From: Candidatus Rariloculaceae bacterium | GTDB taxonomy: Bacteria; Pseudomonadota; Gammaproteobacteria; Steroidobacterales; Rariloculaceae | Reading direction: 5' to 3' | Length of the DNA stretch: 64,000 nt | Assembly: GCA_045561025.1 (NCBI GenBank) | Contig: JBJKYM010000015.1 | Location: forward strand, 6,599 to 70,598 | Part shown: in pieces, positions 1-59,808 of the stretch | Layout of the letters: each line of letters begins with the position of its first letter | Numbering within the stretch: the first letter of the stretch is position 1 | Program-made: the position numbers and the translations under genes | Notes under the pieces: model-generated | Databases searched by the model: none | The model's input: only the letters and a program-made list of their open reading frames with translations | What the model was told of the DNA's origin: nothing

Positions 1-24
1 TTACGCTAGTATGGTGGCTCGATA

Positions 25-26617: not shown

Positions 26618-27079
26618 TTATTTCTCCAGAAAGTTCACGCGCTTTATCGTGTCGCTCGGCTCGATTCGTCCGATTGGTGTTGAGCTGTACGTCGAGGAAA
26701 TGACACGACCGTTGCCGCCGAGCATGAATTCCGAAGGCTGAATAATCCCGCGCTCGTCATTCCACCATGCGCCGATCATGTCGGCTTGCTCCCGTGTAAC
26801 GCTGTGGGCGATAGGAAAGCTGAGGTCCGCCTATACTTTCGCGGCCTCTTCCTGTGAGTCGACCGAAGCACCGATTACGGCCACGTTCAGTTTCTCGAGG
26901 TCCGCGCTGATAGCTTCGAAGCCGGCCAACTGCCGGCGATAGTAGGGTCACCAGTGGCCGCGATAGAACAGCAGAACGAGGTAGGGCGTTTCTATATCTA
27001 CGGGAATGGTTATCTGCCCGCCGTCGGTGAGGTTCAGCGTCGTCGTTGGAAACTGATCGCCCGCGTTAAGTTTATCCAT
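26618..27079 (-). pseudogene. peroxiredoxin-like (AhpC/TSA-redoxin) gene with TGA at the catalytic Cys position and a second in-frame TAG; candidate (ex-)selenoprotein
   Basis: My own minus-strand translation (not in the ORF track): MDKLNAGDQFPTTTLNLTDGGQITIPVDIETPYLVLLFYRGHW*PYYRRQLAGFEAISADLEKLNVAVIGASVDSQEEAAKV*ADLSFPIAH...GIIQPSEFMLGGNGRVISS. TGA at 26948-26950 sits where homologs have C in RGHWCPYC. TAG at 26831-26833. Confidence 0.65.
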
Positions 27080-27126
27080 ATCGATATCCCGAGACCTGTG
27101 TAATCGTGTATGTGCTGCCGGAGCGT

Positions 27127-27963: not shown

Positions 27964-27973
27964 AAAAAAGAAC

Positions 27974-28750: not shown

Positions 28751-28896
28751 GGCTACAAGAAGTGTAACGCATCAGTTTTACGGCTTCGCGACGTTCCGCG
28801 CTTGTGCTCATGATTTACATCTATAATAGAAACACTCGGCTGACGCCTCTAGATCAATACGAAGGCGAAGCCGTCGCAAAATATCGAGGGGAAAAT

Positions 28897-30174: not shown

Positions 30175-30290
30175 CGATGTAGGCCTGTCAGGTCGCGAGA
30201 TACCAATATCGGTTTCGATCTCACGGTATAACTCGTGCCAGACGCGTCTGGTTTGATTGCAAGAATAAGAAAGTCCGTGGAGAGAATATT

Positions 30291-31970: not shown

Positions 31971-32984
31971 TTGTTGACGAGAATGTCTTCGCGGACGAGT
32001 CTGTTGGCAACTGGTCTTCTGCTGTATGCCGCGCACGCAGGAGCCCACCACAGCGCGGTCCAGTTCGATCTGTCGGCCACAATCTCGTTCGACGCGGTCG
32101 TTACTGAGTTCGAATGGAAGAACCCGCACGTATTCGTTCAGGTCGACCGCGTCGATGATGAAGGTCAGGTGACCAGTCTGCAGATCGAAGCGGATGGTGC
32201 CTCGATGCTGACTCCCCATCGTTGGTCTCGAGATTCGCTGGAGCCCGGGGATCGCGTCATCGTGGAAGCCTATCCTGCGCGGCGTGCCGACGGCCGCTCG
32301 TTGCTGGGTTACTCGATAACGAAGCGCGACGGAACGGTTCTGTCTCCCAATCCGGATCGATTTATCAGCGAGCAGGTGAGTTCGCCTCAGGCTGCACGTA
32401 TCGAAGGCGTGTGGCTGCCCCGATGGGCAGCGTTCTTCCGTCTGAGAAATGCCCGGCTGCCACTCACGGAAGAAGGAAGGCAATTCCGGGAGGGACCGGA
32501 GTCGGAGCAGATACCATTGTACGAATGCGCTCCTTTCTCGACGCCGCGCATCATGGTGATACCCGTGCGGTCGGAGATCGAGATACTCACTGATCGTGTG
32601 TTGATTCGTGTGGACTGGCTGGATGTCGAGCGGGTCATCTACACGGATGGCCGTGAGCATCCGACCAATGGCCCGCGTACGCTTCAGGGGCATTCGATTG
32701 GCAACTGGGAAGGCGACACGCTCGTTATCGATACCGTGCTATTCAGTGATGAGTCTATGGGCGAGTACAGCCTGCCGAGTGGACCGGACAGGCACATAGA
32801 AGAACGGCTTAGTCTGAATGCAGACCGCCGGACACTCGACTACGCGTTCACGCTCGAGGATCCCGAGTATCTTACTGAGCCGGTTTCCGGCGGAGGAAGC
32901 TGGGATTATCGCCCCGAGTTGGAGCCGTCCTCGGTGGCCTGCGATCTGGAAGCCTCAAGACGAAATCTCGACACCACCGAGTAG
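31971..32984 (+). CDS. HH/NPH family member 3 (fused N+C domains)
   Basis: ...LLLYAAHAGA|HHSAVQFD, WKNPH, IEGVWLP, YECAPFSTP, IGNWEGDTLVIDT, C-terminal SSVAC. Start may be TTG 31971 or ATG 31983. Confidence 0.8.
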   Translation: MLTRMSSRTSLLATGLLLYAAHAGAHHSAVQFDLSATISFDAVVTEFEWKNPHVFVQVDRVDDEGQVTSLQIEADGASMLTPHRWSRDSLEPGDRVIVEAYPARRADGRSLLGYSITKRDGTVLSPNPDRFISEQVSSPQAARIEGVWLPRWAAFFRLRNARLPLTEEGRQFREGPESEQIPLYECAPFSTPRIMVIPVRSEIEILTDRVLIRVDWLDVERVIYTDGREHPTNGPRTLQGHSIGNWEGDTLVIDTVLFSDESMGEYSLPSGPDRHIEERLSLNADRRTLDYAFTLEDPEYLTEPVSGGGSWDYRPELEPSSVACDLEASRRNLDTTE

Positions 32985-40211: not shown

Positions 40212-40634
40212 ATGTTGAACAAGAAAACCATTCTGTTGACTTTGGCGGGTGGCTGCCTGACCGCTGCGCTTCCCGCATCGGGTCACCACAGCACCTTCAA
40301 CTACTACGATCCGGAGGTCATCGTCGAGTACGAAGACGTAACGGCAGTATCGTTCGAGGTAATGAACCCGCACGCACGGCTTGTGTTTCTCGTAACCGAT
40401 GATGATGGCAACGAGGTCGAGTGGACCGCAACCACACAGAGCGCCAACGTTCTTCGTCGCATGGGGATAAGCGCTGATTCAATTCGTCCCGGAGACAAAT
40501 TGACGGTCACTGCTTCGCCGCATAGGGAAGGGCTGAATCTCGTCCTGATGACCGAAGTTGCCTGGGAGAACGGAGACTACGCCGTTCTCTCAATCGGTGC
40601 TTCCGGTGGACTGTTTCGCGCCGACGCTGAGTAG
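40212..40634 (+). CDS. HH/NPH family: stand-alone N-domain protein (DUF6152-like)
   Basis: MLNKKTILLTLAGGCLTAALPASG|HHSTFNYYDPE..., VMNPH, WTATTQSANVLRRMGISADSIRPGDKLTVTA; 140 aa; GGAG RBS. Confidence 0.8.
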   Translation: MLNKKTILLTLAGGCLTAALPASGHHSTFNYYDPEVIVEYEDVTAVSFEVMNPHARLVFLVTDDDGNEVEWTATTQSANVLRRMGISADSIRPGDKLTVTASPHREGLNLVLMTEVAWENGDYAVLSIGASGGLFRADAE

Positions 40635-41493: not shown

Positions 41494-42264
41494 ATGAGGA
41501 TACGACACGGCATTTTCGCGCTGGCTGCCGTACTCGCTGCGGGCTGGGCACTGGCTCAGACTGAAGAGGCATTGCGCGTCTACAGTTCCAACGGAGTTCG
41601 GGTAGTCCTGCAGGAGATGCAACCACAGATTGAGCAGGCGATCGGACAACGGATCAGTTTCGAGCTGAGTACATCGCGAACGCTCGTAGAACAAATCGAA
41701 TCCGGCGAGCACTTTGATGTCGCGCTGCTGACGCCGGCGCTTATCGATGGCTTAATCGCGTCGCAGCACGTGAACGCCGGGTCACGCCAGGATTTTGCTC
41801 GCGTCGGAATCGGCGTTGGATCCAGAGAGGGAACGCCCGCGACGAGTGTCGCCACACTCGACGATCTGCGGCAGACTTTTTTGGCTGCAAAATCGATCGC
41901 GTTCGGCGCGAACGGTCAGAGCAGAATTACAAACGAGGGAAGCTTCGAGACGCTGGGAATCGCTGACGAAATGCGACCAAAAACTCGATTGACAGGTGCC
42001 GGAGAGGCGCCGGGTCTTGTTGCCGAGGGCGAGATTGAGCTCGTGCTGACGCTGGTAAGTGAACTGCTGCGTGAACCCGGTGTCCAGTTTCTTGGGCCGC
42101 TGCCCGCCGAAGTGCAGGGTTACGTTGATTTCTCCGCCGGGACTAGTGCAACTACCGGAGATGCCGCGGCTAGCGAAGCGCTCATCGCTTATCTCTATTC
42201 TCCGGCGTTCATTGAATCGCTCGAAAAGCATGGTCTGGAGCCGATTTCCGCCGCTGTCCATTGA
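41494..42264 (+). CDS. exported periplasmic-binding-protein-like (ModA-type PBP2 fold) orphan solute-binding protein
   Basis: Signal peptide MRIRHGIFALAAVLAAGWALAQ, then LRVYSSNGVRVVLQEMQPQIEQAIGQRISFELSTSRTLVEQIESGEHFDVALL, typical of molybdate/anion-type SBPs. No permease or ATPase nearby. Confidence 0.55.
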   Translation: MRIRHGIFALAAVLAAGWALAQTEEALRVYSSNGVRVVLQEMQPQIEQAIGQRISFELSTSRTLVEQIESGEHFDVALLTPALIDGLIASQHVNAGSRQDFARVGIGVGSREGTPATSVATLDDLRQTFLAAKSIAFGANGQSRITNEGSFETLGIADEMRPKTRLTGAGEAPGLVAEGEIELVLTLVSELLREPGVQFLGPLPAEVQGYVDFSAGTSATTGDAAASEALIAYLYSPAFIESLEKHGLEPISAAVH

Positions 42265-42296
42265 AAACCGGCATTGTTAATCGACGTTAATGAGCA

Positions 42297-43943
42297 ATGA
42301 GCGGGACAATGGTTAATATTCAGTTAGTAAAGGTCGCCAGGAAACACGTGTTGAACAATATCGTCTCATTGGAATTTCCGATTTTCGTCCGGCGGAGAGC
42401 TGCTTTGGCTGGCGCCTGTGCCATTTTCGCGTTGCTCAGCGCTGGCATGGCGTCGGCGCAGTCGCTGCCACGCACGGCGGATGGCAATCCCGATCTTCAG
42501 GGAATCTGGCGTGCCGTCAATCGTGCCGGCTACGATCTCGAAGGTCATGCGCCCCGGCACGATATGCCGGCTGGCATCGGTGTCGTCGACGGTGGGTCCA
42601 TTCCGTACCAGCCGTGGGCGGCCGAACAGAGGCTCGCTAACTTTGAGGCACGCGCTACGGCGGATCCGCTCTCGAAGTGTTTTCTCCCCGGCGTGCCTCG
42701 GGTTACCTCGCTGGAGTTTCCATTCCAGATATTTCAGATGGAGGAACATGTTGCGATCACCTATGAGTGGCAGCAGGTCTATCGCCTGATCTATACGAAC
42801 GGCGAGCCACCTTTATATGGCGGAATTCCTTCCTGGATGGGTAATTCACGCGGCCATTGGGACGGCGACGTATTCGTTGTTGAGGTCATGGACCAGAATG
42901 GCAATACCTGGCTGGATGCTGCCGGAAACTTCCACAGCGACGCTATTCAGGTAACCGAGCGTTATAGCCTGCGCGACGAAAACACGATCGACTACGAGGC
43001 GACGATTGAAGATCCGAACGTGTTCACGCGACCGTGGACTTTGCGGCTCGTACTGCAGCGGCAAACGCATATGGATCGTCTGCTCGAGTATCAATGTCAG
43101 GCGCTTGTAGAAGAAGAGAATGGCGCATTCGAGCGCGATGAGCCGACCTGGTATCCCGCGGCGCTTCCTGCCGACAACGAGCCGTTCGACGCTGACGCCG
43201 GTGCGGATCTGGCACTGCCGGAACCGGAATCGGAGATTAGAAGGCTGGCCGATGGCACGCCTGATATCAGCGGCTATTTTATGGCTGATGCGGGAGGCGC
43301 GAATTACGGTCTGGAGGCTCACCCACGCGAAATCATGCTGCCGCCAAGCCGCGGTCAGGTTATTGATCCGACAGACGGCTCATTACCGTATCAGGCGTGG
43401 GCAAGAACTGAGCGTATGGATCGCGAGCAGCCACACCGGGGTTACGACGATCCGACCGCGCATTGCATCGTCGCCGGCGTTCCAAGATCACACTATGTTC
43501 CCGCGCCGTTTTATATTCTTCAGCCGCCGGGTTACGTCGTCGTTCTTCATGAGCGAATGTCGTGGCGTCAGATTGCTCTGGAAGAACGTGAGCCGCTACC
43601 CGACAACATTCGCCTCTGGCAGGGGGATTCGATCGGGCGCTGGGAAGGAGATTCGCTGGTCGTCGAGTCGCAGAATTTCAATGGAAAAGCCTGGCTCAAT
43701 GAGGCAGGCGACGTCGCCAGTCACATGCTGAAGGTCGTTGAGACATTCACGCCCGGCAGCGACTCCCAGGTGATCTATCGGGCGACACTGACTGATCCGA
43801 TTTCATACACGCGGCCGTATACGATAGAGATGCCATTCAATCGATCTCACGACGAACTGCTGGAGGTTGCCTGCCTCGAAGATAACGGCGATCTGCAGCA
43901 TCTAAAGGATGTGCGTGACGAGCACCGTGCAAATCAGAATTGA
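42297..43943 (+). CDS. HH/NPH family: protein with two tandem C-domains
   Basis: Signal region RRRAALAGACAIFALLSAGMASAQ. Copy 1: LQGIWRAV, SKCFLPGVPRVT, RGHWDGDVFVVEV, LEYQC. Copy 2: ISGYFMAD, AHCIVAGVPRSH, IGRWEGDSLVVES, LLEVAC. Exact start uncertain. Confidence 0.8.
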   Translation: MSGTMVNIQLVKVARKHVLNNIVSLEFPIFVRRRAALAGACAIFALLSAGMASAQSLPRTADGNPDLQGIWRAVNRAGYDLEGHAPRHDMPAGIGVVDGGSIPYQPWAAEQRLANFEARATADPLSKCFLPGVPRVTSLEFPFQIFQMEEHVAITYEWQQVYRLIYTNGEPPLYGGIPSWMGNSRGHWDGDVFVVEVMDQNGNTWLDAAGNFHSDAIQVTERYSLRDENTIDYEATIEDPNVFTRPWTLRLVLQRQTHMDRLLEYQCQALVEEENGAFERDEPTWYPAALPADNEPFDADAGADLALPEPESEIRRLADGTPDISGYFMADAGGANYGLEAHPREIMLPPSRGQVIDPTDGSLPYQAWARTERMDREQPHRGYDDPTAHCIVAGVPRSHYVPAPFYILQPPGYVVVLHERMSWRQIALEEREPLPDNIRLWQGDSIGRWEGDSLVVESQNFNGKAWLNEAGDVASHMLKVVETFTPGSDSQVIYRATLTDPISYTRPYTIEMPFNRSHDELLEVACLEDNGDLQHLKDVRDEHRANQN

Positions 43944-43957
43944 GAGAGACCAGGACA

Positions 43958-44362
43958 ATGACGAAATTTATCCAGGCGGCCCTCGCTGCAACAGTTTTTA
44001 CGGCAACATGTTTCTCAGGTGCTGCGCTGGCGCATCATGCCTTCGCCGCGGAGTTCGATAGAGACAAGCCCGTACACATGACGGGTACGGTCACAGAGAT
44101 GAAATGGTCCAATCCACACGGATGGATCTACCTTGATGTCGAGGACGAGAACGGTAACGTCGTGAATTGGGCCTTCGAGACGCGCGCTGCGAACAACCTG
44201 ATCCGCATCGGCTGGCGCCCGAGCGATCTGCCGGTTGGAACCGTACTCGAGGTAAACGGTTATCAGGCACGAAACGACACACCGACTGCGAGTCTCGCCG
44301 GCGCAGTTCTGCCGGACGGCCGCACGCTATTTTCCGGCACTCCGGATTCCGACGAGGACTAG
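43958..44362 (+). CDS. HH/NPH family: stand-alone N-domain protein (DUF6152-like)
   Basis: MTKFIQAALAATVFTATCFSGAALA|HHAFAAEFDRDKPVHMTGTVTEMKWSNPHGWIYLDV...WAFETRAANNLIRIGWRPSDLPVGTVLEVNG; 134 aa from ATG 43958. Confidence 0.82.
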   Translation: MTKFIQAALAATVFTATCFSGAALAHHAFAAEFDRDKPVHMTGTVTEMKWSNPHGWIYLDVEDENGNVVNWAFETRAANNLIRIGWRPSDLPVGTVLEVNGYQARNDTPTASLAGAVLPDGRTLFSGTPDSDED

Positions 44363-44418
44363 TATCGCGTGGCTTTGATGCGCCCTGGCTGAACAATCGA
44401 ACCGCGACGACAGAGTTC

Positions 44419-45450
44419 GTGAAACAGATCTCAGCACTGCTTACCCTGTTCGTTGCGTTCGCGGCGTCACCGGTCTCCGCCCACCACAGCGCGTCGATAT
44501 TCGACCGCGATACTGTTCTGGTCTTTCCGGGCACCGTTACCCGATTCAACTGGGCCAACCCGCATGTCTATATCTATGTCGCGACGCGCGATGATGCGGG
44601 TCGAATCATCGAGTGGGAGATAGAAACCGACGCGACGCCGATTCTGCTGCGCAGCGGCTGGACCTCCGAGTCGTTACAACCGGGCAGCCAGGTTGTCGTG
44701 CGCGCCAATCCGGACAGGAACGTCAATAGAAATCATGCGTTGCTGGTCTCGATTGAGAGAGAAGACGGTGCTGTATTCGCGGCGCGGTCTGATTTTCTTC
44801 GAACGGAAGACGAAAGCGACCTGCTGGCTTCTGCCGCGAGCATGAACGGCATATGGGAGCTCAGCTACAGGGACTACAACTCGTTCTACGCTGTCTGGGC
44901 AGAGGTCGCTTTAACCGAAAAGGCGCTGGCAGCGCAGGCGACTTATGACGCCAGGGTGGAAGCGCCAGCCGCACAGTGCATTGCGCATCCGACGCCGACT
45001 ATCCTGGTTGCCCCCTATGCAAATGAGATCGTCATTCAGGACGATGTGGTGTTAATCAGGAACGAGCGTTTCAATATTGAGCGTACGGTGTATATGGACG
45101 GGCGCGGTCATCCTGAGAACGGAGAGCCCTCCAATCAGGGGCATTCCATTGGCTGGTGGGAGGACGACGTTCTTGTCTTCGACACGACGCTGTTCGCCAA
45201 CAACAGATCGCCGATATTCGGGCGGCCGATACGACCCGGGGGCGTTCCATCTGGTCCCGGCAAGCACGTTGTGGAAAGATTGGCGTTGAGTGACGATGGC
45301 ACGCGTATCGTTATCGACTTCACCCAGGAGGATCCGGAGTATCTTGCGGAACCGTTCAGTAGCACCGTGGAGTGGTATTTCGCGCCGCACCTGGAGATGC
45401 GTGGGTTTGGCTGCGACTCCGAGAACGCTACGCGATTCACGCTTGAGTGA
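44419..45450 (+). CDS. HH/NPH family member (fused N+C domains)
   Basis: GTG 44419 gives (M)KQISALLTLFVAFAASPVSA|HHSASIFD, WANPH, MNGIWELS, AQCIAHPTP, IGWWEDDVLVFDT, C-terminal RGFGC. The longer ORF-track start (44167) overlaps the previous gene and is rejected. Confidence 0.8.
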   Translation: MKQISALLTLFVAFAASPVSAHHSASIFDRDTVLVFPGTVTRFNWANPHVYIYVATRDDAGRIIEWEIETDATPILLRSGWTSESLQPGSQVVVRANPDRNVNRNHALLVSIEREDGAVFAARSDFLRTEDESDLLASAASMNGIWELSYRDYNSFYAVWAEVALTEKALAAQATYDARVEAPAAQCIAHPTPTILVAPYANEIVIQDDVVLIRNERFNIERTVYMDGRGHPENGEPSNQGHSIGWWEDDVLVFDTTLFANNRSPIFGRPIRPGGVPSGPGKHVVERLALSDDGTRIVIDFTQEDPEYLAEPFSSTVEWYFAPHLEMRGFGCDSENATRFTLE

Positions 45451-45503
45451 TGCTTACAGGCTTCCAGGACGCTCGGTATAAGAACTGAAAAACGGAGAGT
45501 GAT

Positions 45504-46517
45504 ATGAGGTTAATTCAGGTTTTCATGGCTGTCGGCGCGTCGCTCGGCGTGCTTAGCGCGCATGGTCATCATGCTTCAGCCGGAATCTACGACCGAAACG
45601 ATATCGGCGAGATCCAGGGCGAAATTACCTCGGTCTTCTGGCGCAATCCTCATGTTCGTTTCAACGTCTCCCGTATCGGCGATGGTGGCGAGGAAGAAAC
45701 CTGGGAGATTGAGTTCGGCTCGGTTAATACGGTCGAGCGTCTGGGCGTCACGCGCGAAAGGGTCAACGTAGGCGATCAGATTTCCGTAACAGGTAGCCTG
45801 GGGCGTAACGGCATGCATGTCATGTTCGCCGGCGCTGTCACCTTGTCCACGGGCGAGGAGTTGTTGCTCCAGGCGCCCTCGGCTGTCCGCTACGGAATTA
45901 CCGAGCAGGCCGTAGATGAATCCCGCGATGCCGATACCGAGCTGCGGGCCGACATCTTTCGTGTATGGCTTCCAAGTGAGCGCCCCGAAACCGGTTCGGG
46001 TACAACCGAGTATCCGTTGACCGACGTTGGCCGCGCGGCACAGACAGGCTGGGATGCGACCGACGACCCGGCGCTGCGCTGTATCCCGCCCGGCATTCCG
46101 ACGGCCATGGACAACCCCTACCCGATAGAGTTTATAGATCAGGGTGGCACGATCACTATGCTGCTGGAGGAATGGGACGGGGTCCGAACGATCTTCATGA
46201 ACGACAACGGCGACCAGCAACCGGCACAGCCGCGAATGGGATATTCGCGAGGGCGTCAGGAAGGAAACACGTTGGTTGTAGAGACCAGCGATATCGCCTG
46301 GCGATATGTAGACGATCTCGGCACGCCGATGAGCGAAGATGCCGTCATCGAAGAACGGTTTACGCTGATCGACGACGGAACGAGCCTGGAATGGGTTGCG
46401 CGCATCACGGATCCGGTGAATTTCACCGAGCCGGTCGTTATGGAGGGTGTATGGATCTGGCTACCCGGCCACGAGATCAAGCCTTTCAACTGCGCGTTAC
46501 CGGGCGATGGCGACTGA
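45504..46517 (+). CDS. HH/NPH family member (fused N+C domains)
   Basis: MRLIQVFMAVGASLGVLSAHG|HHASAGIYD, WRNPH, ADIFRVW, LRCIPPGIPTAMDNPYPIEFIDQG, RGRQEGNTLVVET, KPFNC. By eye the closest paralog of the 25597 gene. Confidence 0.85.
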   Translation: MRLIQVFMAVGASLGVLSAHGHHASAGIYDRNDIGEIQGEITSVFWRNPHVRFNVSRIGDGGEEETWEIEFGSVNTVERLGVTRERVNVGDQISVTGSLGRNGMHVMFAGAVTLSTGEELLLQAPSAVRYGITEQAVDESRDADTELRADIFRVWLPSERPETGSGTTEYPLTDVGRAAQTGWDATDDPALRCIPPGIPTAMDNPYPIEFIDQGGTITMLLEEWDGVRTIFMNDNGDQQPAQPRMGYSRGRQEGNTLVVETSDIAWRYVDDLGTPMSEDAVIEERFTLIDDGTSLEWVARITDPVNFTEPVVMEGVWIWLPGHEIKPFNCALPGDGD

Positions 46518-46655
46518 GCGGGCTCGGGCGCGGAACTCTGCGTCCATCGAGGAGTCTGACGAGTGTTGCCCGTCGTAGCCCCGGGAGCATTACGCTGCGC
46601 TGGCGCAACATGGTAAGTTAGTATAATGAGTAACGCGGTTCACAGGAGTTCGTAA

Positions 46656-47267
46656 GTGAAGTTAAGAGAATATCTCGTTGCAGGCCTGGCCGTTCTGGGT
46701 CTTGCCGCATTCATACAGCCGCTTCAGGCGCAACCGAATCTGGACAATATGTTCCTCGATGAGGACACGGATTCCTTCGATCCGGGTCTTCGGATCGGGG
46801 CGGACTTTCCAGCGATTCGAGCGATCTCTGATGGGCAGGAAATAAACAATATCTAACAATTTTTCGGGGACAAAGGAGCGGTATTTCTTGCGATGCGCTC
46901 CGTTGACTGGTGACCCTTCTGTAGAGCGCAGCTCGGGCAGCTGCAGGATTACGTTGAGGCCTACGAAGAGGCTGAGGTTGGAATCGTCGTTATCACCTAT
47001 GACGCACCAGAGTTACAACAGGCATTTATCGACGCAGGTGACATCACGTATCCGTTTATCTCGGATGTAGATGCGGAAACCATGATCACCTTAGGTATTC
47101 TGAACGAGAATAATTCACCGGGAGAACCCGCTTACGGAATTCCTCATCCGGGCGTTTTCGTCGTGAATACCGACAATGAGATCGTCGGCAAGATATTTAT
47201 CGAGAGCTTTCGCGAGCGCGTCGATGGGCCTGGAACACTGCGTTACGCTCTGGAGGTTCTGGAGTAG
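46656..47267 (+). pseudogene. exported peroxiredoxin-like/redoxin gene with TGA at the first Cys of the WCPFC redox motif plus an upstream in-frame TAA; candidate (ex-)selenoprotein
   Basis: A single frame reads signal peptide MKLREYLVAGLAVLGLAAFIQPLQAQ...FPAIRAISDGQEINNI*QFFGDKGAVFLAMRSVDW*PFCRAQLGQLQDYVEAYEEAEVGIVVITYDAPELQQAFIDAGDITYPFISDVDAETMITLGILNE...GIPHPGVFVVNTDNEIVGKIF. TAA at 46854-46856, TGA at 46911-46913. Confidence 0.65.
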
Positions 47268-47297
47268 CGCGAATCGGGGGAGAGTAGTCTGAATATC

Positions 47298-48362
47298 ATG
47301 CAATATCGGCTGCTCATCGCATCCATTGCGTTACTGACTCTTAGTTCGGGCGGGCGGCTCCATGCGCATCATGGTGCCGCCGCTCATTTCGATCCCAACG
47401 ATGTGGTGACGCTTAATGGCGTCATTACCGAGCTGCAGTTCGTCAATCCACATTCATTCGTCCACATCGACGTCAGCGATCCCAATGGCGAAGTGACATC
47501 CTGGCGCTGCGAGCTCTCCGGCACCTCACAACTTTTACGACGCGGCTGGACCCCCGAGACACTGGCGCCTGGACAATCGATAGAACTGGTTGGCGAACGT
47601 GCGCGTCGCGAAGCAAACTCCTGCGCCATGTTGACCATCGCGTTCACCGACGGAAAGGTCATCGAAGCGGGCGAAGCTATTGAGGGCGCGGCGATTCCGC
47701 AGGCTGTCGCCAGCTCGGAGGTGGCAGCCAGGCGCTCAAAATATCTGGCGAACGGTCAGCCCAACTTCGCCGGATCCTGGGTCGCTCAAACCGGTAACGC
47801 CACTGGCGGTGCGGTTACGAACGGCGCACCGGTCCCAACAGCGGCAGGGGTCGCGGCCTCGGAGCGTTTCGACTTCCGATTCGACAATCCGGTGATTCGC
47901 TGCGAGAGCGGCAATATCATCGCGGACTGGTACAGGCAGTCGCACGTCAACGAGATCGAACAGGACGATAATCGAATTACGCTGCGCTATGGTTATCTCG
48001 ATCTTGTACGCACCATTCATCTTGATGTGGTCGAACATCCGGATATTGCTGTGCCGAGTGTGGTAGGGCATTCCATCGGGCACTGGGACGGCGACGTGCT
48101 TGTCGTCGATACCCTCGGGTTTCAAGAGCTGGCGCTGCATCCACGTCAGGAGATCATGCTTAGCAGTCAGGCTCGCATCGAGGAGCGCTTCTTCTACGAT
48201 GACGCGACGCGTACGCTGGTTCGCGACTACACTATTTTCGATCCGCAGTATCTCGAACAGCCTTATAGCGGTCGGAATGTCGCGGACATCGCCGCCAGAC
48301 CGTACCAGCCGTTCGAGTGCGTTGATCTAAGCGGTGAGAATAAACGCCGACCAGTAGAATAA
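47298..48362 (+). CDS. HH/NPH family member (fused N+C domains)
   Basis: MQYRLLIASIALLTLSSGGRLHA|HHGAAAHFD, FVNPH, FAGSWVAQ, IRCESGNI, IGHWDGDVLVVDT, QPFEC. Confidence 0.8.
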   Translation: MQYRLLIASIALLTLSSGGRLHAHHGAAAHFDPNDVVTLNGVITELQFVNPHSFVHIDVSDPNGEVTSWRCELSGTSQLLRRGWTPETLAPGQSIELVGERARREANSCAMLTIAFTDGKVIEAGEAIEGAAIPQAVASSEVAARRSKYLANGQPNFAGSWVAQTGNATGGAVTNGAPVPTAAGVAASERFDFRFDNPVIRCESGNIIADWYRQSHVNEIEQDDNRITLRYGYLDLVRTIHLDVVEHPDIAVPSVVGHSIGHWDGDVLVVDTLGFQELALHPRQEIMLSSQARIEERFFYDDATRTLVRDYTIFDPQYLEQPYSGRNVADIAARPYQPFECVDLSGENKRRPVE

Positions 48363-48370
48363 TCGCCTGA

Positions 48371-49330
48371 TCAAAAAGCGACCTGATCTCCGCCCTTGAG
48401 ATCGAGCATCTGCCGCGCCTCGTCCGGCGTAGCGACCTCGAGCGACAGTCCTGAGATGACCTCGCGTATCAGTCCCACCTGTTCCGCGCTGGATTCCGCC
48501 AGTTTGCCCGGCCCGGCCCAGAGTGAGTCTTCCAGGCCCACACGAACATTGGCGCCCATGGCGGCGCCCATACTTGCGAGTCGTATCTGGCTTCCTCCGG
48601 CGCCCAGAATCGACCAGCGGTAGTCGTCACCGAAAAGTCTGTCCGCGGTTCGCCGCATATGGGAGAGATCTTCGGGGTGTGTGCCGATGCCACCGAGAAT
48701 TCCGAATACGCTCTGCACGAACAGCGGTGGTTTAACCAGGCCGCGGTCCAGAAAGTGCGCGAGATTGTAGACGTGGGAAATGTCGTAGCACTCGAACTCG
48801 AAGCGCGTACCGTTCTCTCCGCAGGTCGTCAGGATCCTTTCTATATCGGCGAAGGTGTTGCGAAACACGAGGTCCTTGCTGTTCTCGAGATGCGCACGCT
48901 CCCATTCGTGTTCAAATTCCGTATATCGCTTCAGCATCGGGTACAACCCGAAGTTCATCGAGCCCATATTCAGCGACGCCAACTCCGGTTGTAACTGCAG
49001 CGCGGGCTGCAGGCGTTCATCCACGGTCATGTGTGGGCTTCCGCCCGTCGTGAGATTCACTACGGCATTAGTCGCGGCCTTGATCTGCGGCAGGAACTGT
49101 CGAAACACTTCGGGATCCTGCGTCGGACGGCCGTCCTCCGGGTCGCGCGCATGTAAATGCAGCACGGTTGCACCCGCTTCTGTAGCGGCGATACCGGCCT
49201 CGGCAATCTCAGCCGGTGTTACCGGCAGATAAGGAGACATCGACGGTGTATGAATAGCACCTGTCGGTGCACAGGTAATAATGACTTTACTTGCCAACTC
49301 AGCCTCCAAAACGTGGTTCGGGTACGCCAC
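48371..49330 (-). CDS. 3-keto-5-aminohexanoate cleavage enzyme family (BKACE/DUF849) protein
   Basis: VIITCAPTGAIHTPSMSPYLPVTPAEIAEAGIAATEAGATVLHLHARDPEDGRPTQD is typical BKACE. The GTG 49330 start overlaps the upstream gene by 32 nt. TTG 49297, preceded by GGAGG and directly after the upstream TGA, is an alternative start. Confidence 0.8.
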   Translation of the reverse strand: MAYPNHVLEAELASKVIITCAPTGAIHTPSMSPYLPVTPAEIAEAGIAATEAGATVLHLHARDPEDGRPTQDPEVFRQFLPQIKAATNAVVNLTTGGSPHMTVDERLQPALQLQPELASLNMGSMNFGLYPMLKRYTEFEHEWERAHLENSKDLVFRNTFADIERILTTCGENGTRFEFECYDISHVYNLAHFLDRGLVKPPLFVQSVFGILGGIGTHPEDLSHMRRTADRLFGDDYRWSILGAGGSQIRLASMGAAMGANVRVGLEDSLWAGPGKLAESSAEQVGLIREVISGLSLEVATPDEARQMLDLKGGDQVAF

Positions 49331-50213
49331 GAATTCCCAAGCCGGTGATTCGAAACAGCGCGCCGGCGGAGAACTGCGGTTTCAGGTCAATATCGAAGCG
49401 ATCGTGGACTGCAGGGTGCTTGACCCTGGCCATCGACGTTACGTAGATTTCGTCGAGATTATCACCGCCGAACATGACGGACGTGATATTGCGTACGGGC
49501 ATTCCTATCTTGCGTTCAACCTTACCCTCAGGATCGTAGCGAACGAGATCGCCGGTAATGAGCTCCGCGTTCCAGAGGCAGCCTTCGGCATCGATAGTCG
49601 AGCCGTCGGGAACGCCGTTGGAAGACTTCGTGTCGGCAAAGACGCGTTTACCTGACACGGTACCTGTATCGAGGTCGTAGTCGTAGGCCCAGAATTCGTC
49701 GACGAAGGTGTCGGCGATGTAAAACGTCTTGTCGTCCGGGCTCCAGCATGGCCCGTTCGAACAGATAATTCCGGAATCGACTTTCGTGATCGAGAGATCC
49801 GGATCCAGCTTCCACAAACCGCAGACAGCGAGTTCTTCCTTGTCGTCCATTCCGCCAGCGAAGAAACGGCCATTGCGATCGACCTTGCCATCGTTGAGCC
49901 TCGTTCTTGGCTGATCGGCGTCGACGAGGCTGATCAGGTCGAGCTGATTCGCCTCGGGGTCGAAGAAATAGAAGCCGTCATCCAATGCCAGAACCAACTT
50001 GCCGTTCTCGCGCACGGCGAGCGCGCCAACATCGTGATCCATAGACCAGCTATCGACCTTGCCGCTTCGCGGCTCAAGCCGCCAAATCGAGGGGTTGCCG
50101 ACGCGACGTCCTGTCCCGTCGAGCCACCAGAGAAGCCCGGTTTCCTGATCCCACACCGGGCCCTCTCCGAGGTGGTTACCACAGTCGAGAACACGTTCGA
50201 TTCGATAGCTCAT
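49299..50213 (-). CDS. SMP-30/gluconolactonase/LRE-family protein
   Basis: LGEGPVWDQETGLLWWLD N-terminal motif and PDGSTIDAEGCLWNA blade; 304 aa. Confidence 0.85.
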   Translation of the reverse strand: MSYRIERVLDCGNHLGEGPVWDQETGLLWWLDGTGRRVGNPSIWRLEPRSGKVDSWSMDHDVGALAVRENGKLVLALDDGFYFFDPEANQLDLISLVDADQPRTRLNDGKVDRNGRFFAGGMDDKEELAVCGLWKLDPDLSITKVDSGIICSNGPCWSPDDKTFYIADTFVDEFWAYDYDLDTGTVSGKRVFADTKSSNGVPDGSTIDAEGCLWNAELITGDLVRYDPEGKVERKIGMPVRNITSVMFGGDNLDEIYVTSMARVKHPAVHDRFDIDLKPQFSAGALFRITGLGIRGVPEPRFGG

Positions 50214-50476
50214 GATCAGGATTGCCTTCGCGAGTTGCCCGGAGAGAAGATAGCCTCTCGGGCCACTCGTATGGCGATTTCTCCCCAGTCTTTCTTTTGC
50301 CGAGCGGCGTTTCGATTTTCCGTCAAGGGTACTATTCCGGCGTCGGAAACAACAGAAGCGCGGGCTCTGTAGCTACCGCATTCGGTCAGGTAGAAGCCGA
50401 TTCTCACGATGGCGGCGCGCAGCGCCAAGAGGGCGTAGAATCGTACGTTAAGAATAACTCTCATCAGGAAGGGAGA

Positions 50477-52507
50477 ATGCTCTGGATGGGCCTCGGGGAT
50501 AACAGTAAACCTGGCCGCGCAGGCGTCGTATTTCTCGCGATTACGGTCGCTTGCCTGCATGCGTTGCCGGCCACTGCTGAAGTCGTTCGTATCGATGTCG
50601 AGACACGCGGCGTCGTTGCTGATGGCAAAGCTTTCGGGCTGGCAGGCACGTACGAGCGGCTCGTCGGACGAATTCACTACGCCGTCGATCCGGCGAACGC
50701 TGCCAATCGGGTTGTCCGCGACATCGACTTTGCGCCGACCAACAGCGCGGGGCTGGTGGAGTTCTCTTCAGACTTCTATCTTCTGAAGCCCGTAGACGCG
50801 GCTGCAGGTAACGGCACCGTCTTCGTCGATGTCATGAATCGTGGCCGCAAGAGGGCGCTGGGCTATTTCAATCTCGCTCCGGCTTCGCTCGAGCCGGTAA
50901 CCGAGGCCGATCTCGGCGATGGTTTTCTGATGAACGAAGGCTTCTCGGTGCTTTATATCGGCTGGCAGTTCGATGCGCCGCAGCAAGAGAATTTCATGCG
51001 CGTATATCCACCGGTCGCGACTGACGATGGAGAGTCCTTCGAGGGACTGGTCCGCAGCGACTGGGTCGTCACCGAGCGAAGTTTCGATTATTCGCTCGGC
51101 GACCGAGGGCACGTTCCGTACGCGGTCGTCGATCCCGAGGATCCGCGCAACCAGCTTACCGTCCGCGACTCCGCGGCGAGTGAGCGCGAGGTAATACCGC
51201 GCGAGCAATGGCAGTTCGGACGAGTCGAAGACGGCCGCATGGTTGCGGACCCGACGCGTGTCTATCTGTCGACCGGGTTCGATCCTGGCAGGATCTATGA
51301 GGCTGTATTCGTTGCTGGCGACCCGCCGATCGCGGGGCTCGGGCTTGCGGCGATGCGTGACACGGTCTCGCATATGAAATACGACGCGGTGGAGGCTTTT
51401 GGCCTGCCATCCGGCGCAATCGAGCGAGCGATTACTTTCGGTGACTCCCAGGCCGGCCGTCTATTGCGTCACTTTCTGTATGACGGTTTCAATGTCGACG
51501 AACAGCAACGCATGGCGTTCGATGGTTTCATCCCGCACCTCGCGTCGAATGCGACGGGTAGCTTTAACCATCGCTTCGCACAACCCTCCCGCGCCGTAGA
51601 CAGAAGCTACTTCTATCCGGGCGACCAGTTCCCGTTCTCCGATGTTCTGCAGGAAGATCCGGTCACGGGTGTTGAGGACAGTTTGCTGGCTCGGCTGACT
51701 CCGGAGACGACTCCGAAAGTCTTCTACACGAATACATCGACGGAGTACTGGCGTTTACCGACGGCGCTTATCCATTCGACGCCCGATGGATCGCAGCATT
51801 TACCGCCGGCGGATACATCCAGAATCTACCTTTTTTCGGGAACCCAACACGTTCCGGCTCGGTTCCCGGAGAATCGGCTGGATGGGCTCCAGATCGGCAA
51901 TCCGAATAACTATCGCTGGTTTCTGCGTGCACTGTTACTCGCTCTGAACGACTGGATCGAGTATGGGACTCTGCCGCCGGCGAGCAGCTATCCAACATTA
52001 GAGGGCGGCACGCTCGCTGAGCTTGATGACATTCGCTTTCCCGTCATCCCCCGGGTGCGTTTGCCCAGCGAAGTCAGTCGCGCGTATCGCCTCGACTACG
52101 GCCCGCGATACATCTCAGAGGGAATCATCACGAATGAGCCGCCGATCGTGCATTCGGTATTTCCGTTTCTCGTCGCGCAGGTCGATGAGGGTGGCAACGA
52201 GATTGGCGGCTTGCGGTCGCCCGAGCATAGGGTACCGCTGGCGACCTATACCGGATGGAGTCCGTTCAACCCGATCTCGACGCCCGGTTCCTACATTCCA
52301 TTTTCGAGAACCCGCGCTGATCGGGAAGCTGCCGGCGACGAGAGGCCATCGATAGAAGAACTGTACGCAGGTCGTGAGCAATACCTCGGGCTCGTCGCAT
52401 CGGCGGGGCTGGAGCTGATCGAGTCGGGTTACATTCTTCCGCAGGATCTTCCCGCGATCCTCACGGATGCCGGTAGTCACTGGGACTTTCTTATGTCTGG
52501 AAACTGA
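50477..52507 (+). CDS. large exported protein, alpha/beta-hydrolase-like hypothetical family
   Basis: ATG 50477 after an AGGAAGGGAG RBS; signal region VVFLAITVACLHALPATAEV. N-terminal text AFGLAGTYERLVGRIHYAVDPANAANRVVRDIDFAP...VEFSSDFYLLKP...GNGTVFVDVMNRGRK resembles conserved 650-aa alpha/beta-hydrolase-domain hypotheticals as I recall them. Function unknown. Confidence 0.6.
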   Translation: MLWMGLGDNSKPGRAGVVFLAITVACLHALPATAEVVRIDVETRGVVADGKAFGLAGTYERLVGRIHYAVDPANAANRVVRDIDFAPTNSAGLVEFSSDFYLLKPVDAAAGNGTVFVDVMNRGRKRALGYFNLAPASLEPVTEADLGDGFLMNEGFSVLYIGWQFDAPQQENFMRVYPPVATDDGESFEGLVRSDWVVTERSFDYSLGDRGHVPYAVVDPEDPRNQLTVRDSAASEREVIPREQWQFGRVEDGRMVADPTRVYLSTGFDPGRIYEAVFVAGDPPIAGLGLAAMRDTVSHMKYDAVEAFGLPSGAIERAITFGDSQAGRLLRHFLYDGFNVDEQQRMAFDGFIPHLASNATGSFNHRFAQPSRAVDRSYFYPGDQFPFSDVLQEDPVTGVEDSLLARLTPETTPKVFYTNTSTEYWRLPTALIHSTPDGSQHLPPADTSRIYLFSGTQHVPARFPENRLDGLQIGNPNNYRWFLRALLLALNDWIEYGTLPPASSYPTLEGGTLAELDDIRFPVIPRVRLPSEVSRAYRLDYGPRYISEGIITNEPPIVHSVFPFLVAQVDEGGNEIGGLRSPEHRVPLATYTGWSPFNPISTPGSYIPFSRTRADREAAGDERPSIEELYAGREQYLGLVASAGLELIESGYILPQDLPAILTDAGSHWDFLMSGN

Positions 52508-52530: not shown

Positions 52531-53895
52531 ATGTCACGATCCAAGATTCGAGTCGCTCAATTTCTGGCAGCCACCACGCTGACGATTTTTGCCAGTGGCG
52601 GTTTCGGTTATCCGTCGATCTACCCGACGGGGACGACGATCTACGATCCGGACAGGGCGTGGAACGGCTACACGATTCATCCGACGCCAGAGGGCAAGGG
52701 CGCCGTCCTGATAGATATGAACGGTAACGTTATCCGGCGATTTGCTGAGTTCACCAGTTCGCCGATCAGGATCATGCCAGGTGGCTATATCATGGGCGGC
52801 AGCGGTGAGGCAGTCGTACAACTGGACTGGGATGGCAACGAGGTCTGGCGGTTCGATCGCACGGAGCAGATCGAAGACGAGGATGGCAACAGGATCTGGT
52901 CGGCCCGTCAGCATCACGATTGGCAACGCGAGGGGAGTCCGGCCGGTTATTACTCGCCTGACTCGGCACCCGAGCAGACGAGCGGCCGGACACTGATACT
53001 CGCGTTCAGGAATCTGACCGTCCCGGAGATCAGCGACAAGCGTCTGCGTGACGACTATTTTCTGGAGGTGTCGTGGGATGGCGAGATTCTTTGGGACTGG
53101 ACCTTAAGCGATCATGTCGATGAGCTTGGCCTCTCGGAAGCTGCCCGGAATGCCATATACCGTCATCCTGGCTGGAACGAGGGAACTCAGAGCGCAGACT
53201 GGATGCACATCAACTCGCTGTCCTACATCGGACCGAATCGTTGGTACGACGACGGCGATGAGCGTTTCCACCCGGACAATGTGATATTCAGCAGTCGATC
53301 CGCGAACATCGTCGCAATCGTCAGCCGCTCGGGCAATATCGTCTGGCGTGTGGGCCCCGACTACCGCGAGACCAGGGAGATGCGCGAGATCGGTCAGGTC
53401 ATTGGTTAGCATCACCCACATATGATTCCTGAAGGGCTACCGGGCGCGGGCAATATCATGGTCTTCGACAACGGTGGGGGCGCCGGCTTCGGCGAGTCGA
53501 ATCCGTTCGCGCCCGACGGTCGTTTTATCGTCGAGCGTTACAGTTCGCGGGTGCTCGAGATCGATCCAGTGACGATGGAGAAGGTCTGGGAGTACTCAAT
53601 TCAGGGGCACGGTCGCTTTCACTTCTTCAGTCACAACGTCAGCATGGCGCAGCGGCTACCTAACGGTAATACGCTTATCACCGAAGGGGCAGCCGGTCGG
53701 GTATTCGAGGTCACCGTAGAAGGCGAGATTGTTTGGGAGTACCTCAATCCATTCTTCTACGAGCCGGACGATACGCGACACAATATTTATCGCGCCTATC
53801 GCGTGCCTTACGATTGGATTCCACAGCTTACTCCGCCCGAGGAGCGCGCTGTCGTGCCGCCGCACCCGAGCGAATTTCGGATCGAACCGCAATGA
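52531..53895 (+). pseudogene. arylsulfotransferase (ASST)-like beta-propeller gene interrupted by one in-frame TAG
   Basis: ORFs 52531-53409 and 53422-53895 are in one frame: ...EMREIGQVIG*HHPHMIPEGLPGAGNIMVFDNGGGAGFG.... N-terminus TTIYDPDRAWNGYTIH and HINSLSY are ASST-like. TAG at 53407-53409. Confidence 0.65.
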
Positions 53896-57555: not shown

Positions 57556-58649
57556 TCGAGCATCCCGCGCTGACGATTCGTTCGATTGGAACGCGCGCCG
57601 TCAGTCCGACAATGAGAAACCCGCTGGCGACGAGTGTCGCGCGAATGGAGATGGCGCCATTCGTGCTTGTCGATATCGAGACGGAGGAGGGCGTCGCCGG
57701 TTGCGCGCACGCATTCTGCTATCTGCAGATTGCGGCGCCGATGATTCGAACGGTTATCGAGGAGCTCTCGACAGAGCTCGAAGGTCAATCCGTCGACCCG
57801 GACGCGATCAGACGGCTTGGGCGAAGCCGCCTCGCGTTACTCGGCACGCCGGGCGTCGTCGGCATGGCGCTTTCGCTACTCGATGTAGCCTGTTGGGATG
57901 GTTTGGCGCGGGCCGCCGGCATGTCGTTGTCCCGCTACCTTGGCGCTGAAGTCGGCACGATTCCCGCCTACAACAGTAATGGTCTCAGTCTGACTGAACC
58001 GACGGGACTTGCCGATGAAGCGCTTGCGCTGCTCGAGCCCGGCTTTGAAGCCGTAAAGATCCGCCTTGGGCGGGCCGACGCGCATGAAGACCTTCGTGCG
58101 CTGCGTCTCGTTCGTGCCGCGATTCCTGCGGAGATCGCATTGCCGGCCGACTTCAATCAGGCGCTCTCGGTCGACGCCGCGATTGAGCGTGGCACAGCAC
58201 TGGACGATGAGGGCCTCGAATGGATTGAAGAACCAGTCGTCCACGACGATCTCGTCGGTAGCTCGCGAGTTGCCGCGGCGCTCGAGACACCGATTCAGAT
58301 TGGTGAGAACTTCGCCGGGCCGGCGACGTTGGCCGCATCGATAGAACTCGGTTCCTCCGATTTCGTCATGCTCGATCTGATGCGCATCGGTGGCGTCAGT
58401 GGCTGGCTTGAGGCCGCGGAGATCGCAGAGAAAGCGGGCCTGCCGCTGTCCTCGCATCTGTACCCCGAAGTGAGCAGCCATTTGCTCGCGGCGTCGCCGA
58501 CGGCGCACTGGCTGGAGTATGTCGACTGGGCCGAGCCGTTTCTCGCGCATCCTGTCGAGATCTCAGCGGGCCAGGCCACTATTTCTACGGAACCCGGTAC
58601 CGGCGTGATCTGGGACGATGAGGCCGTTCAGCGGTATTCCATTGATTAA
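57552..58649 (+). CDS. mandelate racemase/muconate lactonizing enzyme family (enolase superfamily) protein
   Basis: FEAVKIRLG, ADFNQA, LEWIEEPV and DFVMLDLMRIGG motifs; ATGA overlap with the upstream gene. Confidence 0.8.
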   Translation: MIEHPALTIRSIGTRAVSPTMRNPLATSVARMEMAPFVLVDIETEEGVAGCAHAFCYLQIAAPMIRTVIEELSTELEGQSVDPDAIRRLGRSRLALLGTPGVVGMALSLLDVACWDGLARAAGMSLSRYLGAEVGTIPAYNSNGLSLTEPTGLADEALALLEPGFEAVKIRLGRADAHEDLRALRLVRAAIPAEIALPADFNQALSVDAAIERGTALDDEGLEWIEEPVVHDDLVGSSRVAAALETPIQIGENFAGPATLAASIELGSSDFVMLDLMRIGGVSGWLEAAEIAEKAGLPLSSHLYPEVSSHLLAASPTAHWLEYVDWAEPFLAHPVEISAGQATISTEPGTGVIWDDEAVQRYSID

Positions 58650-58761
58650 TCTCCGAGCGGATTACTCTGTCGGTACATTTCGAAAGATTCATCCGGCCGG
58701 GGCTGAAATCGAAAATTTCGAGGTATATTTAGCTAACTCTTCATTTCAGGGTCGCTCGCCT

Positions 58762-59808
58762 ATGTTCAGAAGTCTTGCCGGTATCGTTGCCGCGTTCCTT
58801 TGCCTGACCGGAGCTCAGGCTCACCACTCTGTAACCCACTTCTCGCCGGATTTCACCGAGATGGAGGGTACGCTCGTCGATCTCAAGTGGCGCAATCCGC
58901 ATGTCTATTTCTATCTCGAAGTCGAAGAGGATGACGGTTCGACCCGAGTCTGGGAAATGGAGGCGGGCACGATCTATATGATCGGGCGTGCGGGCGTAAC
59001 GCGCGATATGTTCACAATCGGCGAGCGGGTTCGAGTCGCCGGGAACAGGTCGACCGTTTATGAGGACAAATTCTGGTTGACCAATGTTCTGCTTTCCGAC
59101 GGCCGTGAAGTTCTCGTCGTGGCACGCGGAGCACCGCGCTGGGCGGATGACCTGATCGGTGGGAGAAATCAGTGGAGCAACGCCGCGCTGCATGACGACA
59201 ACACCAACGATGCTGATGAGGGAATTTTTCGCGTCTGGAGTCCGCCGGGGCCTGATGCGGGCGTAGTGGTCGTGAGCGATCCCGAGCAGCGACAGTTGGC
59301 CAGCATCGCGACTGCCGCATCACTTGCCGTTCGCGAGACCTGGGATCCCTACGCCTTCGACGAAGCATGTGAGCGCGCCGGTACGCCGCGCGTCAACTTC
59401 GGTCCGCACCCACATCAGTTAATCGAAGACGGTGAGGACATTCTACTGCTCTCGGAAGAATTCGATCTTACGCGCAGATTTCATATGAATAGCGATCTGG
59501 ACCCCGAAGATCAGCCGCTGTCCAAGCTCGGGTTTTCCGTTGGTCGCTGGCAGGACGACAGGACGCTGGTCGTCGAGACATCACGCGTGAATTTTCCCTA
59601 CATGAGCCTTGCCGGTTATGGTCAAAGCGAACAGATGCGGATGACCGAGGTCTATACGTTGAGCGAGGACGAAACGCAGCTGGCCTATAAGGTGACGATC
59701 ACCGATCCCGTGATGCTGACGGCGCCTTATATACAGACCGGAGTCTGGGTCGACCTGGGAGAGGGCATGGTCGGCTACGACTGCGTCCCATCGGCCAATA
59801 GCGAATAA
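58762..59808 (+). CDS. HH/NPH family member (fused N+C domains)
   Basis: MFRSLAGIVAAFLCLTGAQA|HHSVTHFS, WRNPH, EGIFRVWSP, EACERAGTP, VGRWQDDRTLVVET, VGYDC. Start trimmed to ATG 58762. Confidence 0.82.
   Translation: MFRSLAGIVAAFLCLTGAQAHHSVTHFSPDFTEMEGTLVDLKWRNPHVYFYLEVEEDDGSTRVWEMEAGTIYMIGRAGVTRDMFTIGERVRVAGNRSTVYEDKFWLTNVLLSDGREVLVVARGAPRWADDLIGGRNQWSNAALHDDNTNDADEGIFRVWSPPGPDAGVVVVSDPEQRQLASIATAASLAVRETWDPYAFDEACERAGTPRVNFGPHPHQLIEDGEDILLLSEEFDLTRRFHMNSDLDPEDQPLSKLGFSVGRWQDDRTLVVETSRVNFPYMSLAGYGQSEQMRMTEVYTLSEDETQLAYKVTITDPVMLTAPYIQTGVWVDLGEGMVGYDCVPSANSE

Follow-up and report, generated by a model that had tools for sequence, protein, structure and literature searches.

The Sargasso Sea selenoproteome was reported to include a 'Prx-like protein' family of 22 sequences (PMC1088965), and in the GOS selenoproteome a family 'Prx-like 1' (pfam00578, UxxC) was described that comprised 225 Sec forms versus 2,740 Cys homologues (PMC2398784). 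In a 2026 review the Prx-like family is entered as 'predicted with high confidence' (PMC13188914), and the limits of the bacterial SECIS model are given there as well: an apical loop that has 3-9 nt and caps an upper stem of 4-16 bp, a G in the first two loop positions that is usually followed by G or U, and a minimum free energy (MFE) of -7.5 kcal/mol or lower. The loss of selenoproteins in bacteria has so far mostly been inferred from presence/absence patterns (PMC1794560), and in a shallow search of the literature we found no discussion of bacterial selenoprotein pseudogenes.

The locus described here, gene 1, is located in the 64-kb stretch of DNA that was analysed (in the following: the window). 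The family to which it relates and the mechanism involved are already known. Judged by comparison with its homologues, gene 1 very probably derives from the known bacterial selenoprotein family 'Prx-like, UxxC', as a member that a nonsense mutation has recently inactivated. It has the following features:

46656-47267, forward strand: gene 1, in all probability coding for an exported Prx-like (AhpC/TSA, UxxC) selenoprotein before a nonsense mutation inactivated it (translation, Pfam, homologues 80-89% identical with no interruption but the TGA)
46644-46648, forward strand: Shine-Dalgarno-like AGGAG, 7 nt 5' of the GTG start (read from the sequence; function putative)
46656, forward strand: GTG start of gene 1 (read from the sequence)
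46656-46730, forward strand: predicted signal peptide MKLREYLVAGLAVLGLAAFIQPLQA, cleavage before QP (read from the gene 1 translation)
46854-46856, forward strand: premature TAA, codon 67, the presumed inactivating lesion (translation, alignments, independent assemblies)
46911-46922, forward strand: U-P-F-C redox motif, with the TGA at 46911-46913 as codon 86 in ...RSVDW-TGA-PFC (translation, homologue alignment)
46928-46944, forward strand: putative SECIS-type hairpin GCAGCU-CGGGC-AGCUGC, still intact (covariation, TGA-form specificity, MFE)

The gene consists of 203 codons plus a terminal TAG (47265-47267) that falls exactly at the C-terminus of the homologues. The homologues have similarly hydrophobic N-termini that end in ...LQAQP, and the TGA of gene 1 aligns with the first Cys of the CxxC in the Cys-form homologues. 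In Pfam the conceptual product matched AhpC-TSA (PF00578, E = 3.5e-18, 66 bits versus a cut-off of 26) and Redoxin (PF08534, E = 1.4e-12). The initial annotation of this DNA, made from the letters only, had described a signal-peptide-bearing AhpC/TSA redoxin frame with a TGA and a TAA, as well as a 6-bp hairpin at 46928-46944, and every one of these elements was recovered at the same place.

A protein search with the gene 1 product returned full-length homologues of Cys type in the hundreds (about 211 aa, at most 60% identity, largely from Halieaceae). The same search yielded two fragments of 113 aa with 77% identity that start just past the position of the TGA, and the contig of one of these (L001) has W-TGA-P-F-C in an otherwise open frame of 206 codons. 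When public metagenomes were searched with the exact DNA pattern for S-V-D-W-TGA-P-[FY]-C, at least 120 loci were obtained; among the 120 listed, 119 were homologous redoxins whose frames are open on both sides of the TGA. In addition, one genome per GTDB species was scanned in a protein-guided manner and the best 80 loci were taken, 66 of which could be scored by motif search. TGA was present in 34 of these 66, and TGC or TGT in the other 32. The best match to gene 1 among the best 80 loci (L137, GCA_024638465.1) is 85% identical and has TGA, as do four loci with 80-84% identity (L018, L025, L113 and L120) and N-terminal fragments that are up to 89% identical. In fact, all of the closest relatives (80-89% identity) have TGA, and Cys was found only in more distant clades (Halieaceae and similar). 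Since the closest relatives all share it, the TGA of gene 1 is, as read from these alignments, the ancestral selenocysteine codon of the clade and not the result of a chance mutation of a Cys codon.

Two variants of the TGA redoxins were observed. One relative with 80% identity (L136, 1939-2547, from the MAG Gammaproteobacteria bacterium CB6_Bottom.41) reads W-U-A-F-C and so has a substitute for the Pro that is otherwise invariant in the UxxC motif. A subgroup formed by L046, L058, L062, L068, L073, L107 and L130 is longer at the C-terminus by about 150 residues, with 270-278 codons after the UGA versus the usual number of about 118, and represents a fusion variant.

The hairpin that follows the TGA in gene 1 has a stem of 6 bp and a loop of 5 nt, with a G at loop position 2 that is followed by another G. 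The spacing from UGA to loop is 20 nt (46914-46933) and the same spacing is found in all aligned homologues. Loop, stem, loop G, UGA spacing and MFE are all within the limits of the bSECIS model (PMC13188914). Taken as a single sequence, however, the gene 1 hairpin is no more stable than shuffled sequence: the MFE is -9.0 kcal/mol for the 21 nt (z = -1.1) and -14.2 for a 50-nt fold (z = 0.15 versus shuffles), and single-sequence thermodynamics was therefore rejected as evidence. As a single fold is at chance level, the significance of the hairpin derives from the comparison with homologues only.

In a gap-free alignment of 90 distinct sequences, the relatedness of which inflates the figures, a 6-bp helix at a fixed site that follows the U of the UGA by 17 nt was paired in 99.6% of the cells, and compensatory double changes were found at three of the six pairs (G-C/U-A/C-G, G-C/A-U and C-G/U-A; 93 double-change cells). 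None of 500 shuffles matched the observed pairing or covariation, and pairing fell to 41% or less when the partner strand was shifted along. The G at loop position 2 (alignment column 28) is at least 90% conserved in the 90 sequences. The covariation is visible in the protein too, as Q-F-V-K-L versus Q-L-V-Q-L. Moreover, within the GTDB set all six pairs were formed in 31 of the 34 TGA forms versus 1 of the 32 Cys forms (Fisher p = 2.8e-14, a figure inflated by relatedness), a contrast that on these alignments is hard to explain otherwise, the relatedness notwithstanding. Together these comparisons argue strongly that the hairpin of gene 1 is a putative SECIS, conserved by covariation and tied to the UGA forms.

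These results bear on three points that had been raised before. A chance hit on a Cys codon had been considered the less likely origin of the TGA, and the relatives with 80-89% identity, all with TGA, as opposed to Cys in distant clades, are in line with that judgement. The alignment to orthologs that had been proposed as a check gave a clear division between close orthologs, which have TGA and the conserved hairpin, and distant ones, which have Cys. The evidence for a SECIS had been called weak; this was correct for the single sequence, with its z of 0.15, but no longer applies once the covariation and the contrast between TGA and Cys forms (31/34 versus 1/32) are considered.

In one Halioglobus MAG (L158) the codon is TGC (Cys), yet the hairpin is perfect with 6/6 pairs, and the CPYCMAQFVQLQ context is that of a TGA form from another Halioglobus MAG (L159; match region about 3001-3519). 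The L158 gene seems to have switched from Sec to Cys very recently, and its SECIS has so far escaped decay.

Gene 1 is flanked by genes of the DUF6152 family, the proteins of which had been referred to as 'HH/NPH' in the initial annotation. At least nine paralogues are scattered through the window and more are found just beyond it. The DUF6152 regions are:

24479-26595: DUF6152 region
31971-32984: DUF6152 region
40212-40634: DUF6152 region
43940-46517: DUF6152 region
47298-48362: DUF6152 region
58618-59808: DUF6152 region
L224, 17615-19120: DUF6152 region

The exported Sec-redoxin adjoins DUF6152 genes in the relatives L137, L136, L025, L138, L140 and L018 as well. The linkage is conserved and is a hint that DUF6152 may have a shared redox function in the periplasm.

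Rfam and ARAGORN, applied to the 64-kb window, detected no SECIS family, no tRNA-Sec and no tRNA; the sole match was a TPP riboswitch. This element and two other features of the window are:

20-128, forward strand: TPP riboswitch (Rfam RF00059, 65 bits)
179-3828, forward strand, after the riboswitch: TonB-dependent receptor, PnuC-type (NMN_transporter family) transporter and APH/choline-kinase-like kinase
18433-19336, forward strand: short overlapping ORFs in different frames, with weak TPR matches in 19070-19336

The gene set that follows the riboswitch is likely an operon for the uptake and salvage of thiamine precursors. The ORFs at 18433-19336 may represent a small gene cluster or another damaged gene.

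The premature TAA of gene 1 was compared with independent assemblies, which were fetched via the exact products of the DUF6152 genes on both sides. Window positions 46518-47300 are 100% identical in contigs of at least five runs (ERR9649086, ERR9649097, ERR9649098, ERR9649157 and SRR31420721), and NCBI, Logan and ENA each have an entry for the 66-aa product that stops at this TAA. This product lies on a contig of 80,182 bp, and the locus is found on the Logan contig ERR9649086_58907 (88.8 kb) too. The codon at this site is a sense codon in all relatives examined: Glu in the nearest, mostly as GAA, with Asp, Gln or Lys elsewhere. Over the 43 codons 5' of the TGA all 119 metagenomic homologues among the matches listed are free of stops, and no intact gene 1 allele with more than 89% identity was present among 5.8 billion protein clusters. 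Because the identical TAA occurs in at least five runs and every relative has a sense codon, we infer that it is a real nonsense mutation, fixed in the lineage and most simply derived by a change of GAA to TAA. One 66-aa match (P0342) was evaluated as a candidate second lineage with the same stop; it was rejected, being a shorter gene call that ends at the TGA.

The genetic code of the window is standard. The terminators of 53 window ORFs are TGA (23), TAG (21) and TAA (9), and the ORFs tile the window with small gaps, except for the three disrupted genes (gene 1 and the two described below), the region 18433-19298 and a few gaps that reach up to about 420 nt. An alternative code with reassignment of stops was rejected, considering that TAA and TAG end 30 of the 53 ORFs and that the TAG of gene 1 is found at the C-terminus of the homologues.

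The reading frame of gene 1 is not open apart from the Sec-UGA, as the TAA lies 19 codons 5' of it, and gene 1 would therefore be a pseudogene derived from the family and not a functional member. Beyond the TAA there is no decay in conserved columns: 24 columns show a conservation of at least 95% among 104 family members, and gene 1 has 0 violations in them. This test thus gave no sign of relaxed selection, which counts against the reading of an inactivated gene. The only two unusual substitutions (DPGLPIG, P to R; EAGVG, G to E) affect sites that are conserved within the close subgroup only. The nearest relatives are 75-78% identical in nucleotides and thereby too divergent for a branch dN/dS. 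Given that the Sec codon, the resolving Cys, the hairpin and the family-wide conserved residues are all intact, the lesion appears to be young and the inactivation of gene 1 looks recent. Two alternatives had been offered in the initial annotation. A Sec gene with an erroneous TAA is contradicted by the 100% identity across at least five runs and by the lack of an intact allele above 89% identity among the protein clusters, whereas a former selenoprotein gene now decaying agrees well with the family-wide TGA, the covarying hairpin and a TAA that replaces an open Glu codon.

A second gene of the same kind, gene 2, is found on the other strand:

26618-27079, reverse strand: gene 2, apparently a second decayed Prx-like selenoprotein gene, of cytoplasmic type, adjoining a rhodanese gene (translation, Pfam, homologues)
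26948-26950, reverse strand: TGA of gene 2 (translation)
26939-26941, reverse strand: Cys of the UxxC changed to Tyr, TAT (comparison with homologues)
26921-26937, reverse strand: hairpin GCCGGC-aguug-GCCGGC, kept (read from the sequence)
26831-26833, reverse strand: TAG where homologues have CAG (comparison with homologues)

Gene 2 reads ...RGHW-TGA-PYY... and matches AhpC-TSA in Pfam. Most of its homologues are C-terminal fragments of 94-110 aa, the signature of gene calls split at a TGA, and in the five contigs examined (L010, L011 and L013-L015) an intact W-U-P-Y-C without extra stop was present. GCA_024638465.1 has intact orthologues of gene 1 as well as gene 2. The branch of the window copy was compared with that of L010, which is 91% identical, and L013 and L011 served as outgroups. 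In the window copy the resolving Cys is gone (TGC to TAT, C47Y, by which UPYC became UPYY), codon 83 (Q83) is TAG instead of CAG, the conserved motif AYGV is changed to AHSV, and the C-terminus is shorter. On its own branch about 12 non-synonymous and 11 synonymous changes were counted versus 6 and 14 on the sister branch, a difference that is not significant (p = 0.22). The lesions are identical in contigs of at least five further runs from several projects. By this comparison gene 2 is more decayed than gene 1. The earlier remark that the same event is seen in a second gene (26618-27079) holds: the homologues are nearly all TGA forms with W-U-P-Y-C, and the window copy has its extra lesions on top of that.

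In all five contigs with an intact relative of gene 2 a gene for a tandem rhodanese of 278 aa is located upstream; the rhodanese gene of the window is found at 27127-27963 (reverse strand). The arrangement suggests that the rhodanese and the gene 2 product may form a functional pair of a sulfurtransferase and a Sec-redoxin.

The third disrupted gene of the window is of a different nature:

52531-53895, forward strand: arylsulfotransferase-like gene, split by an in-frame TAG at 53407-53409 (Pfam Arylsulfotrans, Arylsulfotran_2)

The TAG lies in a conserved G-Q-H-H-x-H-[MI]-IP motif, where most of the full-length homologues examined (450-490 aa) have Gln and one has His, and the split is reproduced in other assemblies. 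Nonsense mutations in the window are not confined to Sec genes, and the TAG in this unrelated sulfotransferase gene thus implies that decay is not confined to selenocysteine genes either. Nevertheless, three genes are clearly disrupted among the approximately 60 of the window and both Sec-type genes are included, which has a p of about 0.002 under random placement. The two largest non-coding gaps in the 64-kb window, of 780 and 531 nt, correspond exactly to the two redoxin loci. Pfam scans of the approximately 60 window ORFs and of a 7.6-kb extension detected no Sec machinery, and none of selA, selB, selC and selD is present in the 64-kb window and the 7.6 kb beyond it, which make up a small part of a genome of several megabases. 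In the upstream direction the contigs end where the window starts. The species itself is not represented among the best 80 GTDB loci.

Window positions 24627-30463 and 41504-52362 were compared with the contigs L002-L009 and L216-L221. Contigs of ERR96490xx, SRR31420721, SRR28395889, SRR8503608 and ERZ23491103 were 100% identical to the window over 1.5-9 kb, and the only contig that differed, that of SRR5007118, still showed 99.7% identity. On these comparisons the lineage is remarkably clonal and widely distributed.

Several other explanations of the interrupted frame have to be weighed against these data. The TGA might never have been a Sec codon: a Cys-type redoxin could have acquired it by chance, as a nonsense change of its Cys codon from TGC or TGT to TGA, and Cys-form homologues are indeed abundant. 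Nevertheless, the close relatives (67-89% identity) all have TGA at that codon together with the SECIS hairpin, whereas the Cys forms are at most 60% identical and, in all but 1 of 32, lack the hairpin, so that this explanation is practically out of the question. If instead gene 1 were a functional selenoprotein gene and the TAA an artefact of sequencing or assembly, the intact state of the remainder of the gene (SECIS, UxxC motif and conserved residues) would follow naturally. However, the TAA is reproduced in contigs of five runs, the 66-aa product is known from three sources, and the extra stops of gene 2 and the sulfotransferase gene are likewise reproduced in independent assemblies; we consider an artefact extremely improbable. 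It is also very improbable that a suppressor tRNA, or else programmed or conditional readthrough, carries translation past the TAA of gene 1 and the TAGs of the two other genes and that a full-length selenoprotein is made. The mRNA of gene 1 would then need two recoding events, at UAA and at UGA-Sec, in a free-living marine gammaproteobacterium. Such readthrough would agree with the perfect preservation of the rest of gene 1 and with the position of the three extra stops at Glu or Gln codons of the homologues, one substitution away from TAA or TAG. Against it, TAA and TAG terminate 30 of 53 ordinary window genes, the TAG terminator of gene 1 itself coincides with the C-terminus of the homologues, there is no tRNA gene within the 64-kb window, and gene 2 has a further inactivating change, from Cys to Tyr. 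Moreover, we know of no reassignment of TAA or TAG in free-living bacteria.

With nonsense inactivation of gene 1 as the preferred reading, the question of its cause becomes relevant. We propose, with about an even chance of being right, that the use of selenocysteine has been lost or has become dispensable in the lineage and that this is the most likely cause of the death of both Sec genes, because gene 2, the one further gene of Sec type in the window, is dead as well and is more decayed. Tentatively, and at a little under even chances, this may be extended to a cosmopolitan clonal lineage that has been caught losing its selenocysteine trait while the SECIS elements are still intact in the dead genes, which we hold to be far likelier than readthrough. 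Alternatively, both redoxin genes and the sulfotransferase gene may have died by ordinary accumulation of mutations in a clonal, bottlenecked lineage in which the Sec machinery is still present, the pairing of the Sec genes being due to coincidence or dispensability. This would account for all three genes, including the unrelated one with its nonsense TAG, without loss of the Sec trait; it is supported by the 100% identity over kilobases of contigs from different projects, as expected for a very clonal population, and by the lack of further decay in gene 1. Considering, however, that both Sec genes are among the 3 disrupted genes out of approximately 60 (p of about 0.002 under random placement) and that the UxxC motif of gene 2 is without its resolving Cys as well, ordinary accumulation of mutations appears possible but rather doubtful.

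On the reading of a nonsense-inactivated selenoprotein gene, the course of events may be envisaged as follows. The ancestral mRNA of gene 1 would have encoded a secreted thiol:disulfide oxidoreductase with thioredoxin fold, and at UGA-86 selenocysteine would have been inserted through SelB and Sec-tRNA, which the hairpin located 17 nt downstream would have recruited, both by analogy with the family. The exported DUF6152 proteins encoded next to it were probably served by the U-P-F-C redox centre. Codon 67 then became a stop by one substitution, for which GAA to TAA is the simplest route. As this stop precedes the Sec codon by 19 codons, ribosomes would end after a fragment of 66 residues and never reach the UGA or the SECIS. 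The lesion is fixed in a very clonal, widely sampled population.

For annotation this implies that gene 1 and 26618-27079 are best entered as selenoprotein-derived pseudogenes, not as two or three short hypothetical ORFs and not as functional Sec genes. Two dead Sec genes with intact SECIS hairpins, in a lineage that is unchanged in many marine samples, would constitute a dated snapshot of the loss of bacterial selenoproteins. In addition, the comparative set comprises about 150 TGA forms, a covarying hairpin without counterpart in the Cys forms and one apparent Sec-to-Cys conversion that keeps the hairpin, and provides a clean training and test case for the prediction of bacterial SECIS elements. 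The linkage between the exported Sec-redoxin and the DUF6152 paralogues offers a lead to the function of the uncharacterised DUF6152 family.

In comparison with thioredoxin-fold proteins described before, gene 1 shares with NCBIfam NF040769 (SelL-related redox protein) both the fold and the tie to selenoproteins; membership was rejected, the match being weak and partial with 32.6 bits versus a cut-off of 120. The NCBIfam WAxxUGC models gave sub-threshold matches to gene 1 only. The Cys-type exported proteins of Halieaceae (e.g. that of Halioglobus maricola, P0057) form an orthologous family with 44-60% identity to gene 1 and agree with the gene 1 family in length, signal peptide and RSxDWCP[YF]C motif. 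They differ from gene 1 in having TGC or TGT for TGA and in a hairpin that is reduced to 2-5 of the 6 pairs, where the sequence codes for Q-M-I-Q-L-Q. With respect to the bSECISearch model as summarised in PMC13188914, the gene 1 hairpin is alike in its 5-nt loop, 6-bp stem and 20-nt spacing. Its loop CGGGC contrasts with the CGUG[A/C] that is commoner in its family, and is common to several intact relatives. The clearest correspondence is with the Prx-like selenoproteins (PMC1088965, PMC2398784), with which gene 1 shares the PF00578 fold and a UxxC instead of the TxxU of true Prx; its placement in the 'Prx-like 1' sub-family is by Pfam domain and motif only. Like these selenoproteins, the gene 1 family is abundant in marine metagenomes, has a bSECIS hairpin just 3' of the UGA and has Cys-form homologues, which among the Prx-like selenoproteins outnumber the Sec forms. 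What sets gene 1 apart from the functional Prx-like selenoproteins is the premature TAA 5' of its Sec codon.
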